DNA from: Desulfobacterales bacterium
GTDB taxonomy: Bacteria; Desulfobacterota; Desulfobacteria; Desulfobacterales; UBA11574
Assembly (NCBI GenBank): GCA_030145345.1
Contig: JAQYVT010000004.1
Coordinates: 992 to 64,991, forward strand
Reading direction: 5' to 3'
Length of the DNA: 64,000 bases
A program made the translations under genes and the position numbers. A model generated the notes under the pieces. The model did not search any database, was not told the origin of the DNA, and was given only the letters and a program-made list of their open reading frames with translations. Shown one piece after another: positions 2,504-7,499 of this stretch (position 1 is its first letter; each line of letters begins with the position of its first letter).

Positions 2504-3766
2504 TCACCTTCGATACAGGCTATCAAATACATTCCAGAAATCCGGAAACGATTTTTCAACGCACGTTTCATCCCGGATAACGATACCCGGGGTTTTAAGT
2601 CCGGCAAGTGCAAAACTCATGGCCATGCGATGATCCCCGTACGTATCGATTTCAGCACCATGGGGGCGGCCGCCTTTGATTTCCATGCCGGTTTCGCTAC
2701 AGCTTGCGTCGATACCGATTTTGGAAAGCTCTTTTACAACAGACCCCAAACGATCGCTCTCTTTGGCTTTCAGGTGCCCCACATTTTTGATAACCGTAGT
2801 TCCCTTTGCAAAGGCCGCAACAACGGCCAGCGTGGGAACCATGTCCGGCATATCGGACATATCCGCCGTAATCGCCGAAAGGGGTCTGCCCGAGACGGTA
2901 ATGCCGTCCGCCCCATGATCGATGTTACACCCCATTTTTTCGAGAAGTTCGGTAAAACGGACATCACCTTGCCGCGATATTGTTGTGGTTCCCTTTACTT
3001 TGATATCCGAGCCGGATATTGCGGCAGCCGCCCAGAAATATCCGGCCTGTGAACAGTCCGGTTCCACTTCATAGGATCCTGCCCTGTAGATCTGTCCCCC
3101 GGCGACACTGAAATACTCATAACCGTCACGTCGAACTTCAATGCCGAGTTCTTCCATGACATCCACCGTCATATCCACATAAGGTCTGGATACGGGCCCT
3201 TCGATGACATTTATTTCAACCCCTTGTGTTGTGTAAGGCGCTATCAGAAGCAACGCAGAAAGGAACTGGCTGCTGACGCCGCACTTGAGCGCAACACCGC
3301 CGCCCCAGACTTTACCCCCTTTGACTTCAACAGGCGGACATCCATTGGCCTTTACCGACCGTGCGTCCACCCCCATCTGGACAAGACCGTCCAACAGATC
3401 CTGGATGGGCCGCTCTCCCATCCGCTGGGTCCCCGTAAGGGTGTAAACCCCTTGTCCCAGAGCTGCCACGGCGGTTAAAAGGCGTACTGAAGTTCCGGAA
3501 TTTCCAAGATAGACAGGATCGATACAGGGCTTTAACATCCCTTTTGTACCGTGCACCACAAAACGGTCATCCTTTACATGGATGTTTATGCCCATCTGCC
3601 TTAAAGCACCCAGGGTGAGGAGGGTATCTTCGCTTTTAAGTCCGTTGTATATGGTGCAAATCCCGTCAGACAGGGCTGCAGAGATGAGTATCCGGTGCGT
3701 ATAGCTCTTTGAACCCGGAACAATGACTTCACTGTTATGAATTTTCTGGGAACTTATCTCAATCAT
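2504..3766 (-). CDS. aroA: 3-phosphoshikimate 1-carboxyvinyltransferase (EPSP synthase)
   Basis: 420 aa. N-terminus reads VPGSKSYTHRILISAALSDG, with full-length EPSP synthase similarity. Confidence 0.95.
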   Translation of the reverse strand: MIEISSQKIHNSEVIVPGSKSYTHRILISAALSDGICTIYNGLKSEDTLLTLGALRQMGINIHVKDDRFVVHGTKGMLKPCIDPVYLGNSGTSVRLLTAVAALGQGVYTLTGTQRMGERPIQDLLDGLVQMGVDARSVKANGCPPVEVKGGKVWGGGVALKCGVSSQFLSALLLIAPYTTQGVEINVIEGPVSRPYVDMTVDVMEELGIEVRRDGYEYFSVAGGQIYRAGSYEVEPDCSQAGYFWAAAAISGSDIKVKGTTTISRQGDVRFTELLEKMGCNIDHGADGITVSGRPLSAITADMSDMPDMVPTLAVVAAFAKGTTVIKNVGHLKAKESDRLGSVVKELSKIGIDASCSETGMEIKGGRPHGAEIDTYGDHRMAMSFALAGLKTPGIVIRDETCVEKSFPDFWNVFDSLYRR

Positions 3767-3780
3767 CGAATGGGTACCCG

Positions 3781-4773
3781 TTACTTTTCCGTGATGGACT
3801 CTTCTATCTTGATACCGAAATGACGTCCGCCCGCTTCCATGGCCACCAACACCTTGTCGCCGGGAACAAGGCTCACAACCGATACGGCATTGCCTTCGGG
3901 ATCGGTGAGCCGGATGGTTTCCGCGTTCTGGACGATGGTGGCAATCTCTTGGCCGTCAAAGACTGCTTTTATCAGCATCAACGGACGTTTCTCGATCTTT
4001 AAACGACCCACTATACCGGTTGATGTATTTCCTTTAAAGTCAACGATCAACACCGAATCTCCGGCCGAAAGCTCTGAAAGGTACCTCGTTTTCCCCCCTG
4101 GAATCCGGGTGTATGAATGCACCGGACCTGCATTAACCCTGAAAGGTCTTGGAGAGACGTACGGGTTGAAAATGCTTTCGGAATGAATTAAAAACAAAGC
4201 ACTGCTGCTGTTTCCCACCAGCATCCCCTGGCCCATGCCCATGGATGTGCAGGTATCCACACAGACCCGATCTCCCATCCCCACAGGTCTGACCTCAACG
4301 ATCTCGGCAGTCTGAAGGGAAATTTTATCTCCTTCCGAACGAAGCCAGGAGAGCACCTTTTTCAGTTCCACCACATCGTCTGGGTGGAAAAGAACGTGCC
4401 CCACGCCTTTTTCGAGAATACCGAAAGCCGTCTGCGCCTCGTCAAGATTCTTAACCTGGGCAATGACATCAGCGCCTTTGGCGATCAGGTTCTCAAGGGG
4501 GATAATGGTCCAGTCGCTGCATTGAAGAATGACACGTTTTGTCTGACTGAGCTTCGTAATTTCTTCTTCATCCTCGCCGCTTTTGATCTCGAAAAAAACC
4601 ACATCTTTTCCCAGCTTTAAATCACCGTCTTCGGAAATGGTCTGAACCCTTCCCAGAGCTTTTACTTTTTCGGAAAATCCCTTTGGAACCACGATACCGT
4701 CTGCACCGCCTTCAAGTGCAGTGGTCACCATGTTCTTGTCCCAGGGATCCACCTTTACCCATATCTTTCGCAT
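3781..4773 (-). CDS. 3-dehydroquinate synthase II (archaeal-type, AroB-prime)
   Basis: 330 aa. The MRKIWVKVDPWDKNMVTTALEGGADGIVV N-terminus is typical of the MJ1249-like DHQ synthase II family. Adjacent to the ADH synthase gene and aroA. Confidence 0.85.
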   Translation of the reverse strand: MRKIWVKVDPWDKNMVTTALEGGADGIVVPKGFSEKVKALGRVQTISEDGDLKLGKDVVFFEIKSGEDEEEITKLSQTKRVILQCSDWTIIPLENLIAKGADVIAQVKNLDEAQTAFGILEKGVGHVLFHPDDVVELKKVLSWLRSEGDKISLQTAEIVEVRPVGMGDRVCVDTCTSMGMGQGMLVGNSSSALFLIHSESIFNPYVSPRPFRVNAGPVHSYTRIPGGKTRYLSELSAGDSVLIVDFKGNTSTGIVGRLKIEKRPLMLIKAVFDGQEIATIVQNAETIRLTDPEGNAVSVVSLVPGDKVLVAMEAGGRHFGIKIEESITEK

Positions 4774-4808: not shown

Positions 4809-5606
4809 CTATCCCAGAATCTTCAGTGCATCTTCCACGCTGCTGTCATCATGGACGATGGCGGAGATCGCACGTACCATGCGCGTCGGGTTTTCATGCT
4901 GAAAAACATTCCTGCCGATGGAAACACCGGCACCGCCGGCGTCGATGGAACCTCTTACCATTTCGAGGATATCCCGATCGGAATCCATTTTAGGGCCGCC
5001 GGCAATCACCACGGGAATCGAACAACCGGCCACAACTTCTTTAAACGTTTCCACCGAGCCGGTATAGGATACCTTGACAATGTCCGCACCCATCTCTTTT
5101 CCAACACGTGCAGCATGTTTTATCACGTTTACATCATACTCGTCCTTAATTTTTTCCCCTCTGGGATAGATCATTGCAAGCAACGGCATCCCCCATTTAC
5201 GGGCCTCACTGCTGACCGTCCCAAAATCATGCAGCATCTCTTTTTCCTGCCCGTTCCCAAGATTTACGTGTATGGATACGGCATCTGCACCCAGTTTGAT
5301 CGCCTCTTCGACGGTACACACCAGAGTTTTGACATTGGGATACGGTGAAAGACTGGTAGATGCAGACAGGTGGATGATCAGACCGATATCTTTACCCTTC
5401 CCGCGATGCCCTTCACCCACAAGCCCTTTATGTTCCACGATGGCATTTGCGCCCCCTTCCGCCACTTTTTGGATGGCATCCTTCATATCCTTCAGGCCGT
5501 CGATAGGGCCCATTGAAATGCCGTGATCCATTGGAACAATTACGGTTCTCCCTGTATTCCGGTTTTTTATCCGCTCGATTCGGATATGTTTGCCTAAATA
5601 CGTCAT
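4809..5606 (-). CDS. 2-amino-3,7-dideoxy-D-threo-hept-6-ulosonate (ADH) synthase, DhnA-type class I aldolase (AroA-prime)
   Basis: DhnA/MJ0400-like sequence ([31 protein letters not shown]). I chose ATG 5606 as the start because AGGAGG sits 7 nt upstream. The track ORF start at 5699 would read through the terminator hairpins. Confidence 0.8.
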
Positions 5607-5623
5607 GTTACAATCCTCCTTTG

Positions 5624-5660
5624 AAAACAAAAAAGGCCGTGAAGTTTTTTCTCCACGGCC
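5624..5660 (-). terminator. Leader terminator hairpin T1 (proximal), immediately before the operon RBS
   Basis: Minus-strand GGCCGUGGAG-AAAAAA-CUUCACGGCC (10 bp including one G-U pair) followed by UUUUUUGUUUU. The RBS and ATG 5606 follow about 15 nt later. Confidence 0.6.
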
Positions 5661-5663
5661 CTT

Positions 5664-5702
5664 AAAAACAAAAAACCGTGGGGTTTTCTGTCTACCCACG
5701 GT
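5664..5702 (-). terminator. Leader terminator hairpin T2 (distal)
   Basis: Minus-strand ACCGUGGG-UAGACAGAAAAC-CCCACGGU (8 bp) followed by UUUUUUGUUUUU. Confidence 0.6.
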
Positions 5703-5730
5703 TATTTTCGCTTTGCAAGTTGTTCTTGTA

Positions 5731-5808
5731 TCAGCGCACCCCAGGCAGACTGGTATTAAAAAAATACCAATAATAAAAATAATACCTGCCCGATATATTA
5801 TGCACCAT
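5731..5808 (-). CDS. Candidate attenuation leader peptide [25 protein letters not shown]
   Basis: ATG 5808 is preceded by AAGGA with 8-nt spacing. The ORF is 25 codons with TGA at 5733-5731. Codons 9-17 (5784-5758) are nine consecutive aromatic codons: 5 TAT, 3 TTT and 1 TGG. Confidence 0.65.
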
Positions 5809-5845
5809 TTATTTTTTCCTTATTTTAAATAAAATTCTTGCAACC

Positions 5846-5872
5846 ATTATCTTATCGACTTTTTCATGTCAA
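5846..5872 (-). promoter_or_regulatory. Candidate sigma-70 promoter for the leader and shikimate operon
   Basis: The minus strand has a perfect TTGACA (5872-5867). Then either N15 to GATAAT (5851-5846) or N17 to TAATGG. It lies about 40 nt upstream of the leader ATG. Confidence 0.35.
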
Positions 5873-5916: not shown

Positions 5917-7122
5917 TTATAGCGGAACCGCTGCCTTGTAAAAGGTGGCATTTCCTTGGATACGGTACTTTTCCACAACTGCAGGGATAACAATCGATTT
6001 TCCCCGCTCAACGAAAACGTTTTCATTTTTGCCAAGGTCCGTAATCGTTGCACGCCCGTCTGTGCAGAGGATGATTTCAACGCTCCTGCGGTCGGCGCTG
6101 TGATAGCCGATCTCTTCTGTTACAGAAATAACAGACAGGAAAAACTCTTCAGCAGGGGTTTCATATGCGAATTCACATTTGTCGATTTCACCGGCAAAAA
6201 GGATGTTTATTTCACGTTCTTCAAAATTAAGAACGTTCAAGAGCTCCTGAACATCGATATACTTGGGGGTCAGCCCCCCCCTTAATACGTTGTCCGAGTT
6301 TGCCATGAGTTCTATTCCGACGCCATCCAGATATGCGTGAAGTTCTCCGGACGGAAGAAACATGGCCTCACCGGGTTTTAGACAGATCAAATTCAACAGT
6401 ATAGGGGAAAACACACCGATATCCTTCGGATATTCCTTGTGAAGATCGATCATCCATTGATAAGCCGCGTGGTTATCTGCAAAATTTTGTACCTTTTTTA
6501 TGGCATCCGCGATGATTTCCGCCCGCTGCTTTTCATCCAGGGTCATCAGTGCCTGAAAAAAATTTTTTAACCCCATGGAATCCGGCTGTTCACGGAGAAG
6601 ATCGAGGGTCGTTTTCAAACCCGGGGGGCAAATTTTGTCCATCAGAGAATGGATGTCGGAAATTTTTCGAAACCCATTCAAAGCCCAGAAATCGGTCATT
6701 GCACAGATACACTCGGGTTTGTGGTTATCATCCTTGTAATTACGGTGGTATGCATCTAAAGGAATCCCGAGTCTGTTTTCCCTTTCAAAACCTTCTTTTG
6801 CCTGAACCCGGCTGGGATGGGCTTGAATGGACAGGGGTTTTGCCGCTGCCAGCACCTTGAAAAGATACGGAAGCCTGTTATCAAATTTTTCAGCAACCTT
6901 TTCCCCAAGAATATCTTGCGGATTTTCCGAGATCAATTCCAACACGGAGCGCCACACACCATCACATTTTACCATAGAGGGTGCCTTGGGATGAGCGCCC
7001 ATCCATAGCTCTGCCTGGGGCCTGCTTGCCGGAGCGTCATGGCCGAGAAGTTCGGGAATGGCGGTGTACGACCCCCATGCATATTCCTGAACGGAATTTT
7101 TCAGTAAACGGATACGGTCCAT
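5917..7122 (-). CDS. manA: Mannose-6-phosphate isomerase, class I
   Basis: Type I PMI similarity from MDRIRLLKNSVQEYAWGS onward. ATG 7122 chosen because the upstream extension to 7176 lies inside repeat copy A. Confidence 0.85.
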   Translation of the reverse strand: MDRIRLLKNSVQEYAWGSYTAIPELLGHDAPASRPQAELWMGAHPKAPSMVKCDGVWRSVLELISENPQDILGEKVAEKFDNRLPYLFKVLAAAKPLSIQAHPSRVQAKEGFERENRLGIPLDAYHRNYKDDNHKPECICAMTDFWALNGFRKISDIHSLMDKICPPGLKTTLDLLREQPDSMGLKNFFQALMTLDEKQRAEIIADAIKKVQNFADNHAAYQWMIDLHKEYPKDIGVFSPILLNLICLKPGEAMFLPSGELHAYLDGVGIELMANSDNVLRGGLTPKYIDVQELLNVLNFEEREINILFAGEIDKCEFAYETPAEEFFLSVISVTEEIGYHSADRRSVEIILCTDGRATITDLGKNENVFVERGKSIVIPAVVEKYRIQGNATFYKAAVPL

Positions 7123-7139
7123 TATTTTGCCAATTCCAA

Positions 7140-7333
7140 TTTGACGGCTTCGTAAAAAGTCTTTTGTGAGCGACATCGAGCAATTTTGGAGAAAGATTCA
7201 TGATGCGTCTGGCGTTAAAAGTTGCAAGCTGTTTGAGGGCGTTAGCCCGAGTTCTTGCAATTTAGCCAGACGCATCATGAATCCCAAAATTGCTTGCGGA
7301 GCGAACAAAATCAGACTTTTTACGAGTTCATCA
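7140..7333. repeat. About 194-bp long-hairpin palindromic intergenic repeat, copy A
   Basis: Nearly identical to 17512-17704 and 60144-60326. The termini CGTAAAAAGTCT...AGACTTTTTACG are inverted repeats. Internal arm pairs are GCAATTTTGG/CCAAAATTGC, GATTCATGATGCGTCTGGC/GCCAGACGCATCATGAATC and TTGCAAG/CTTGCAA, around a GGGCGTTAGCCC centre. Confidence 0.9.
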
Positions 7334-7499
7334 AATTTCCCATGTAAAATCTGTAAAAAAACCAAAACCGTCCAATAAGACCCAACAGGCTACAGATATC
7401 ACACAATGCCATGATAGGGCAAATGTTCGTTTACTTCCGAATTTCAACTTGATATAAATACAGGAATCGAGCCAAATTAGCACGAAAAGAGGTTTCCGT

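Follow-up and report, generated by a model that had tools for sequence, protein, structure and literature searches.

This study concerns a leader region within a 64,000-nt stretch of DNA from a Desulfobacterales bacterium (assembly GCA_030145345.1, contig JAQYVT010000004.1, positions 992 to 64,991 of the forward strand), which we call the window. On its minus strand, an apparent operon encodes 2-amino-3,7-dideoxy-D-threo-hept-6-ulosonate synthase (ADH synthase), 3-dehydroquinate synthase II (DHQ synthase II) and, as its last gene, EPSP synthase (aroA). Between the upstream gene manA and the ADH-synthase gene lie a candidate promoter, a short open reading frame (ORF) with an uninterrupted run of Tyr, Phe and Trp codons, and two hairpins, each followed by a U-run (Table 1). 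We compared this region with its counterparts in related genomes and metagenomes, and folded its RNA with a model ribosome placed at different positions. The results indicate that the region is very probably a ribosome-mediated (leader-peptide) transcription attenuator of a shikimate-pathway entry operon.

Table 1. Genes and leader elements of the locus in window coordinates, listed in the direction of transcription (MFE, minimum free energy; SD, Shine-Dalgarno motif; helices P0, P1, AT1 and AT2 are described in the text).
Feature	Position	Strand	Basis
manA, gene upstream of the leader	5917-7176	(-)	profile annotation
-35 hexamer TTGACA of the candidate leader promoter, A-rich tract before it	5867..5872	(-)	sequence
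-10 candidate, GATAAT (15-nt spacing) overlapping TAATGG (17-nt spacing)	5844..5851	(-)	sequence
SD AAGGA of the leader ORF, 8 nt before ATG	5817..5821	(-)	sequence; SD-like motif before 66/73 leaders
Leader ORF, 25 codons, ATG 5808-5806, TGA 5733-5731	5731..5808	(-)	sequence and conservation
Segment 1 (UCGGGCAG), 5' strand of leader hairpin P1, adjoins the aromatic run upstream	5786..5793	(-)	MFE fold
Putative regulatory codons 9-17, nine consecutive aromatic codons (5 Tyr, 3 Phe, 1 Trp)	5758..5784	(-)	sequence
Segment 2 (GUCUGCCUGGGGUGCGCU), 3' strand of P1/P0 and 5' strand of AT1, encodes ...LPGVR	5733..5750	(-)	folds, pair counts
Segment 3, AGCG (5712-5709) and T2 left arm/loop ACCGUGGGUAGAC (5702-5690), 3' strand of AT1	5690..5712	(-)	masked folds, pair counts
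Predicted terminator T2, stem ACCGUGGG/CCCACGGU, 12-nt loop, U-run UUUUUUGUUUUU	5664..5702	(-)	MFE fold, RNAalifold
Segment 4, T2 right arm and first U's, 5' strand of AT2	5673..5683	(-)	pair counts, masked folds
Segment 5, T1 left arm GGGCCGUGGAG, 3' strand of AT2	5651..5661	(-)	pair counts
Predicted terminator T1, 13-bp stem AAGGGCCGUGGAG/CUUCACGGCCUUU, then U-run	5624..5663	(-)	scanner, MFE fold, RNAalifold
SD AGGAGG of the ADH-synthase gene	5615..5620	(-)	sequence
ADH synthase, first regulated gene	4809..5606	(-)	TIGR01949, 384.6 bits (cut-off 299)
DHQ synthase II	3781..4773	(-)	NF002627, 500 bits (cut-off 392)
EPSP synthase (aroA), last gene of the apparent operon	2504..3766	(-)	TIGR01356, 439.8 bits

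Results

Leader ORF and its conservation

The aromatic run of the leader ORF is unique in the window: across all six frames of the 64 kb, no other nine-codon window consists of aromatic codons throughout (the next best score is 7/9), and runs of such length are expected from the local base composition at about 3e-5 per window of this kind. The layout of the ORF (AAGGA, 8 nt, ATG 5808, 25 codons, stop at 5733-5731) and the composition of its codons 9-17 are exactly as given in a preliminary description of this DNA, which had been made from the letters alone. That description had tied its reading to the recurrence of the ORF and its aromatic run upstream of ADH-synthase orthologues in Desulfobacterales, and this recurrence was found.

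A search with the ADH-synthase protein against 185,579 species genomes yielded 80 loci, in which ADH synthase is 80-99% identical to the query; the annotation of all 80 is Desulfobacterales, Desulfobacteraceae, Deltaproteobacteria or similar. Of these, 76 reach 250 nt or more upstream of the gene, and leader conservation was counted in them. In 72/76 loci, ADH synthase is preceded by a short ORF built like that of the window, ...SG-(Tyr/Phe/Trp run)-TGLPGVR*, which usually ends 100-150 nt before the ADH-synthase start; terminator hairpins come after it, nearly always two. A convincing leader was not seen in four loci (L061, L066, L071 and L048), and the leader of one other (L014) is degraded, its aromatic residues replaced by Cys and Gly. 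Together with the metagenomic sequences described below, about 100 sequences carrying the element were gathered. Candidate cultured carriers are Desulfonema magnum 4be13 (locus L072), Desulfosudis oleivorans and Desulfatirhabdium butyrativorans.

Seventy-three leaders, the window's included, were analyzed for their coding properties. They are 20-31 codons long (mode 25), a start codon is present in 73/73 (55 ATG, 13 GTG, 5 TTG), and the stop is UGA in 60/73. Tyr and Phe occur in every leader and Trp in 55/73, with totals of 330 Tyr, 261 Phe and 60 Trp codons. Aromatic codons account for 34% of codons in the reading frame versus 13-18% in the other two frames, and for 8.6% in the window's genes. 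Among leaders, Tyr, Phe and Trp codons replace one another without restriction, and the remainder of the sequence between the conserved flanks drifts; GC-rich lineages have shorter aromatic runs (FFYY, for example) and altered end residues (DPPGVR, GPPAVR). The spacing between the flanks CAGGCAG and CUGCCUG provides a test that is independent of ORF calling: it ranges from 31 to 49 nt and falls into one class modulo 3 in 64/70 loci, and these steps of three are a signature of translated sequence. In having a translatable short ORF (SD, start and stop) after the candidate promoter and ahead of the first structural gene, with a surplus of codons for the amino acids that the regulated pathway makes, the region matches the plan of an attenuator leader. 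The peptides of five representative leaders gave no NCBIfam or Pfam profile match at E <= 10.

The -35 hexamer is conserved along with the ORF. A perfect TTGACA after an A-tract, present at 5872-5867 on the minus strand of the window as previously noted, was found in 65/71 related loci, where it precedes the leader start by 53-81 nt (mode 61). The T and A that stand 18 and 19 positions after this hexamer are kept in 58/65 and 59/65 loci, respectively.

Association with two versions of the pathway entry

We then examined the element without reference to genes, by scanning a metagenome collection with the 19-nt segment-2 pattern alone, TCTGCCTGNGGTGCGYTGA. This gene-blind scan returned 120 stretches. 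An aromatic leader precedes ADH synthase in 46 of them and class-I DAHP synthase (TIGR00034, aroFGH, 463-484 bits) in 18; class-I DAHP synthase, with which the pathway classically begins, shares no homology with ADH synthase. Six further stretches carry the leader with too little downstream sequence, and in two the leader is cut off by the contig edge, with ADH synthase or DAHP synthase after it. A pathway-entry enzyme thus follows 64/64 leaders with enough downstream sequence (46 ADH synthase, 18 DAHP synthase). The remaining ∼48 stretches, four of which our script had labelled as leaders only through a Phe run, have no aromatic leader, and we treated these matches as chance or unrelated.

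Among these non-leader matches, at least 15 contigs share the 19-nt pattern in the reading ...SLTPFFF(S/L/P)...LPAVR*, with no aromatic-leader layout; they include L082, L083, L085, L092, L113, L116, L117, L137, L143, L162, L199 and L200, with L091-L093 and the unlisted matches L163-L198 inspected in part only. Where tested, a same-strand ORF of at least 90 aa lies within 600 nt in only one of these contigs (96 aa, L162), and the group looks like one chance match in an abundant organism.

Eight further loci were obtained via seven DAHP-synthase proteins (66-87% identical to two queries), and 8/8 carry the leader. DAHP-linked loci with enough downstream sequence have an operon of DAHP synthase, DHQ synthase, shikimate dehydrogenase and EPSP synthase, which in some cases continues with shikimate kinase and chorismate synthase. 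The upstream neighbors of DAHP-linked leaders are an SSF transporter, trpA, an aquaporin or unknown gene, and a HAD hydrolase. Named relatives of the DAHP-linked enzymes belong to metagenome-assembled genomes of Desulfobacterales or Deltaproteobacteria, apart from one labelled Hyphomicrobiales, a label that we suspect to be a binning error. The preliminary description had placed the attenuator at the archaeal-type ADH-synthase/DHQ-synthase-II operon; it is present there, but its range proved wider, for the same leader also stands before classical DAHP-synthase operons. Within the collected loci, we found no further leader copies.

Two of the DAHP-linked loci show additional aromatic genes. In L202 (1-3623), the end of a trpG-D-C-F-A cluster lies directly upstream of the leader and its DAHP-synthase operon, making up an aromatic supercluster. 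In L206 (1-2218), a second DAHP_synth_1-family gene and a pheA-like gene (CM_2, PDT, ACT) lie upstream in divergent orientation.

Structure of the leader RNA

For the 246-nt leader, the predicted folding energy is -78.7 kcal/mol (z = -5.5), a value reached by 0/200 shuffles. T2 and T1 were recovered both by the MFE fold and by RNAalifold run blind. A simple terminator scan flagged T1 and missed T2, because the 12-nt loop of T2 exceeds the scanner's limit of 8 nt. Both hairpins with their U-runs had been pointed out before: T2 stands at 5702-5664 as described, T1 extends slightly further than described (5663-5624, previously 5660-5624), and AGGAGG and ATG 5606 of the operon do follow directly after T1. 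Intrinsic terminators are therefore predicted between leader and structural gene, as in other attenuators, although here there are two.

Applied to a MAFFT alignment, RNAalifold returned the cores of T2 and T1 only and gave no prediction for the gap-rich leader part, so we tested named helices instead, counting pairs in 62 aligned leader regions for helices named from the window's own folds. In the terminated state (P0/P1, inner hairpin, T2 and T1), 87.0% of cells are paired and 26 pairs are changed on both sides, a result matched by 0/500 shuffles. P1 is paired in 87.8% of cells, with both-side changes in 5/8 pairs, and T2 and T1 are paired in 97.6% and 95.1%, respectively. Conservation of both terminator stems goes far beyond what terminators standing on their own would need.

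Competing helices and covariation

The same segments can form a second set of helices. AT1 pairs 5750-5733 with 5712-5690, and AT2 pairs 5683-5673 with 5661-5651; each antiterminator is exclusive with a terminator, and AT1 involves the 3' part of the leader ORF. In the antiterminated state (AT1 and AT2), 86.6% of cells are paired, with 16 compensatory pairs; 0/500 shuffles reach the observed value on four of five measures, and 3/500 do so on the fifth. Slid controls, in which the partners were shifted by 1-3 columns, gave only 33-46% pairing for the terminated and antiterminated states alike. AT1a is paired in 94.6% of cells, with 5/9 pairs compensatory and GC/AU/GU alternation at the outer pairs, and AT2 is paired in 88.9%, with 3 compensatory pairs. 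In 21 further sequences (16 of them DAHP-linked), added with the alignment columns unchanged, pairing was 95.2% for AT1a, 96.8% for AT1b, 92.6% for AT2, 93.4% for T2 and 87.9% for T1.

A base shared by two competing helices is able to pair in either of them in 86-92% of cells; this value is 90-92% where AT1 is involved, and 90% for the segment-2 bases common to P1 and AT1. In L039, L051, L054 and L079, T1 has a C-A or A-C mismatch where AT2 keeps a standard pair, and the same was read from the aligned segments of L153, L160, L169 and L196; likewise, L110 and L156 have an A-C mismatch in T2 where AT1 gains an A-U pair. Where the helices conflict, the antiterminators thus often appear to win in the aligned sequences. 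The preliminary description had proposed a cascade in which GUCUGCCU (5750-5743) pairs with GGGUAGAC (5697-5690) in the left arm and loop of T2, and the T2 right arm CCACGG then pairs with the T1 left arm CCGUGG. Both pairings are present and covary, so that the helices of this cascade are the ones backed by comparative data.

Within segment 2, conservation is at least 81% at every base (at least 87% at most of them) save window position 5741 (alignment column 118; G32/A15/T9/C5), which is a second codon position, giving residue G, E, V or A, and is also the single unpaired bulge of AT1. Because the one variable base is non-synonymous and unpaired in AT1, the constraint acts on the RNA and not on the peptide, which argues against readings in which the peptide itself is functional, as an arrest peptide or as a small protein. 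The conserved peptide ends (SG... and ...GLPGVR, encoded by segments 1 and 2) thus reflect RNA pairing.

Folding with a model ribosome

We modelled the ribosome as a 30-nt mask, an assumed footprint size, placed on the aromatic codons or on the stop codon as the preliminary description had envisaged. A mask with its A site at codon 9 or 11 hides segment 1, and once the RNA includes segment 3 it folds into AT1 in place of T2; by a length of 180-188 nt, the T2 right arm left free in this way has joined the left arm of T1 in AT2. A mask with its A site at the stop codon hides segment 2 instead, and T2 forms, followed by T1. The masks thus behave in the model as the geometry of an attenuator predicts, segment 2 (5750-5733) ending at the UGA (5733-5731). 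Median energies over 59 sequences are -22.8 kcal/mol for the leader hairpin, -24.0 for AT1, -16.0 for T2, -15.6 for AT2 and -19.8 for T1. By these values (-24.0 vs -16.0 kcal/mol), AT1 outcompetes T2 outright.

Neighboring features

The ADH-synthase gene starts at ATG 5606-5604 on the minus strand, with AGGAGG (5620-5615) before it. A GTG-started ORF of 296 aa (4809..5699, minus strand) was rejected as an artefact of the mechanical ORF list: it crosses both terminators, and ATG 5606 with its AGGAGG is the real start. No clear terminator was found in the window 3' of the EPSP-synthase gene.

The gene order manA, aromatic leader, ADH synthase is kept in 76 loci; a functional link between mannose-6-phosphate isomerase and the pathway, if there is one, might lie in sugar precursors. 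Alignments of the relatives' manA begin at residue 12-19, and the true manA start may lie downstream of the called start (7176). Directly upstream of this called start is a perfect 18-bp inverted repeat, GATTCATGATGCGTCTGG ... CCAGACGCATCATGAATC (window 7198-7283). A ∼43-nt piece near the inverted repeat (about 7308-7350) recurs, at other positions and orientations, in L005, L121, L133 and L150, and may be a small repeat or an insertion resembling a miniature inverted-repeat transposable element (MITE-like). A 30-codon ORF upstream of manA (7320-7412, minus strand; MALCDICSLLGLIGRFWFFYRFYMGNLMNS), which scores 7/9 for aromatic codons, was not accepted as a further leader, since it lacks an SD and only loci whose manA is about 84-92% identical align in its region. 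Its aromatic richness is probably due to chance.

Discussion

Proposed mechanism

The conservation of the leader, its coding signature, the covarying exclusive helices, the masked folds and the conserved promoter all support the reading first put forward in the preliminary description, and on this sequence evidence we estimate a probability of roughly 0.85 that the element is a ribosome-mediated transcription attenuator of the shikimate-pathway entry operon. We propose that it would work as follows. Transcription would start at the conserved promoter, about 30 nt upstream of the 25-codon ORF. When aromatic amino acids are plentiful, the ribosome would pass the nine aromatic codons and reach the UGA, where it covers segment 2; after its release, segment 2 would re-pair with segment 1. 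Segment 3 would then be free to form T2 with segment 4, segment 5 would form T1 with segment 6, and transcripts would stop before the ADH-synthase gene. When charging of the aromatic tRNAs is low, the ribosome would stall within the run and sit on segment 1, leaving segment 2 free to pair with the T2 left arm and loop (AT1). This would block T2 and free its right arm, which would pair with the nascent T1 left arm (AT2) and so delay T1 until the polymerase has entered the operon. Operon expression would thereby depend on how fully tRNA-Tyr, tRNA-Phe and, in most lineages, tRNA-Trp are charged. Termination at the two U-runs and a response to amino-acid supply are what the structures and codons lead us to expect, and relief of T1 through the AT2 relay is probable, though less so than attenuation as such.

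Several observations weigh against this mechanism or against parts of it. Equilibrium folds re-form T1 once its right arm is out, whether or not AT1 is in place, and AT2 is about 4 kcal/mol weaker than T1. Since T1 is the equilibrium structure as soon as its right arm emerges, its relief would have to be kinetic. An antiterminator weaker than the terminator is also known from the E. coli trp leader. When the A site is set at codon 13, 14, 15 or 17, segment 1 pairs across the ribosome in the equilibrium fold, a pairing that we would discount on steric grounds. A few lineages (L035, L038, L040 and L206) have only one terminator, T2. The covariation controls remove the phylogenetic signal only in part, and because the T2 and T1 stems are similar, some of the AT2 signal may come from their having arisen by duplication. 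Finally, although the TTGACA of the promoter originally proposed was borne out, its GATAAT/TAATGG -10 candidate is weak, and it is because of this weakness (15-nt spacing for GATAAT, 17-nt for TAATGG) that a promoter scanner run on the window did not call the leader promoter.

Alternative explanations

If the element is an attenuator, the alternative most in need of attention is that the leader ribosome controls T2 only. T1 would then lie outside the regulation, serving to reduce overall output or, as a fail-safe, to catch transcripts that read through from manA, and the T2/T1 complementarity would stem from duplication. Some of the points just listed fit this possibility: T1 is the MFE structure of the fully transcribed leader even with AT1 formed, it is more stable than AT2, and one terminator suffices in some lineages. 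However, an efficient unregulated terminator directly after a regulated one would cancel the regulation. Moreover, AT2 is 88.9-92.6% paired with compensatory changes, it is kept in all eight of the loci named above in which T1 carries a mismatch, and both stems are conserved far beyond what free-standing terminators require. We therefore regard control of T2 alone as possible but rather unlikely.

A switch that is independent of the ribosome is highly improbable. In such a switch, a protein or small ligand would bind the leader hairpin, as in TRAP-like, PyrR-like or riboswitch regulation, and the ORF would be incidental. The leader hairpin and both terminators are indeed conserved as RNA, and segment 2 is constrained as RNA and not as peptide, but length changes in steps of three (64/70 loci), the conserved SD, start and stop, and the enrichment of aromatic codons in one frame only all count against such a switch. 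The free interchange of Tyr, Phe and Trp codons amid drifting sequence also speaks against it, as does the absence of an Rfam family match.

Two readings that assign a function to the peptide are less probable still. A TnaC-type arrest peptide, whose nascent ...GLPGVR end would sense free aromatic amino acids and arrest the ribosome at the UGA, would account for the conserved C-terminal residues, the proline near the peptide end and the UGA in 60/73 leaders, but the single variable base is non-synonymous (G, E, V or A) and unpaired in AT1, the end residues are altered in GC-rich lineages, and a stall at the stop codon would mask segment 2 and favor termination when amino acids abound, as ordinary translation already does. 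A functional small aromatic-rich protein, with the hairpins as ordinary terminators for its ORF or for manA, would fit the conserved ORF and its constant neighbor manA (76 loci), but is opposed by the different neighbors of the DAHP-synthase copies, by leaders that vary in length and sequence while aromatic run and RNA pairing persist, by the lack of a Pfam or NCBIfam match, and by the consideration that constitutive terminators right before the SD would silence an essential biosynthetic operon.

Returning to attenuation, we lean slightly toward a more comprehensive proposal: that one ribosomal sensor of Tyr, Phe and Trp acts through a five-helix relay (1:2, 3:4 and 5:6 vs 2:3 and 4:5) over two terminators, that it would be the main transcriptional control of shikimate entry across Desulfobacterales and related Desulfobacterota, and that it was kept or moved between the ADH synthase/DHQ synthase II and the DAHP synthase/DHQ synthase routes.

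Relation to known attenuators

The element resembles the leaders of E. coli pheL-pheA and pheM-pheST (Rfam Phe_leader, RF01859), in which a short ORF carries a run of aromatic (Phe) codons and exclusive 1:2, 2:3 and 3:4 pairings decide on an intrinsic terminator before an aromatic-pathway gene (PMC3082878, PMC11802643). It differs from them in that pheL and pheM use Phe codons only, have one terminator, occur in Gammaproteobacteria and control a terminal-branch gene or a synthetase, whereas the element described here has Tyr, Phe and Trp codons, has two terminators and stands at the entry of the pathway. Closer in its target is the Corynebacterium glutamicum aroR leader (Phe-Tyr-Phe), which attenuates aroF, a DAHP-synthase gene, according to Neshat et al. 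2014 as summarised in PMC11802643; there, too, mixed aromatic codons precede the gene for the first step of the common pathway. Compared by description and not by sequence, aroR as presented in that summary has three regulatory codons, none of them for Trp, where the present leaders have 5-11; it belongs to Actinobacteria, and it is reported to respond to Phe and not to Tyr.

In topology, the element is most like hisL. Its six segments and two registers (P1, T2 and T1 vs AT1 and AT2) relay a 5' stall via a middle hairpin to the final terminator. The hisL leader of Salmonella and E. coli reportedly has a six-segment relay of this kind (A:B, C:D and E:F vs B:C and D:E), which Johnston and colleagues are said to have described in 1980. 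The resemblance, two alternating registers in each case, is topological only: the middle hairpin C:D of hisL is not a terminator and the codons are for His, whereas here the middle hairpin T2 has its own U-run. Multivalent leaders, with codons for several end products of a shared pathway, are likewise familiar from thrL (Thr and Ile) and the ilvGMEDA leader (Leu, Val and Ile); these sense other amino acids than the present element, occur in Gammaproteobacteria and have a single terminator, as aroR presumably does also.

We found no prior description of the element in Rfam 15, Pfam or NCBIfam. No Rfam family reached its gathering score anywhere in the 64-kb window, nor were there gathering-level matches in five related loci. 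At E <= 10, no leader family (Phe_leader, Trp_leader or others) was listed for the leader region, and Rfam gave chance-level matches only (psRNA14, mir-2813, trpB motif, L20 leader; 13-26 bits against gathering scores of 36-100). The literature that we searched (including Rodionov 2004) holds no report of an aromatic leader in Desulfobacterota, of one for ADH synthase, or of an aromatic leader with a double terminator, and PMC4833913 and PMC1262725 proved to have no bearing on it; older attenuator surveys of the Russian school lay outside this search and may hold a prediction. Three traits found together make the element a new variant of classical attenuation: joint sensing of Tyr, Phe and Trp through runs of up to nine or more codons, a pair of terminators that a relay connects, and control of the pathway entry in two non-homologous versions.

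Significance

Mechanistically, the element extends a classical theme, and it is useful for annotation and for the study of folding kinetics. The roughly 100 sequences could seed a new RNA family for genome annotation, and one sensor relaying to two terminators would be a clean system for the kinetics of co-transcriptional folding. Leader-peptide attenuation would be extended to a lineage and to a pathway step, the entry of the common pathway, for which it is seldom reported; aroR is the sole other case that we found. Desulfobacterales are sulfate reducers and account for a large share of the public metagenome data from sediment and subsurface in which we detected the element, and, if our reading is correct, this would be the first regulatory mechanism found for their aromatic amino-acid biosynthesis in the literature searched. 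The same leader stands before two non-homologous entry enzymes, and therefore marks the bacterial ADH synthase and DHQ synthase II as true aromatic-biosynthesis genes. From the side of regulation, this would be evidence that these bacteria use the archaeal-type route to make aromatic amino acids.

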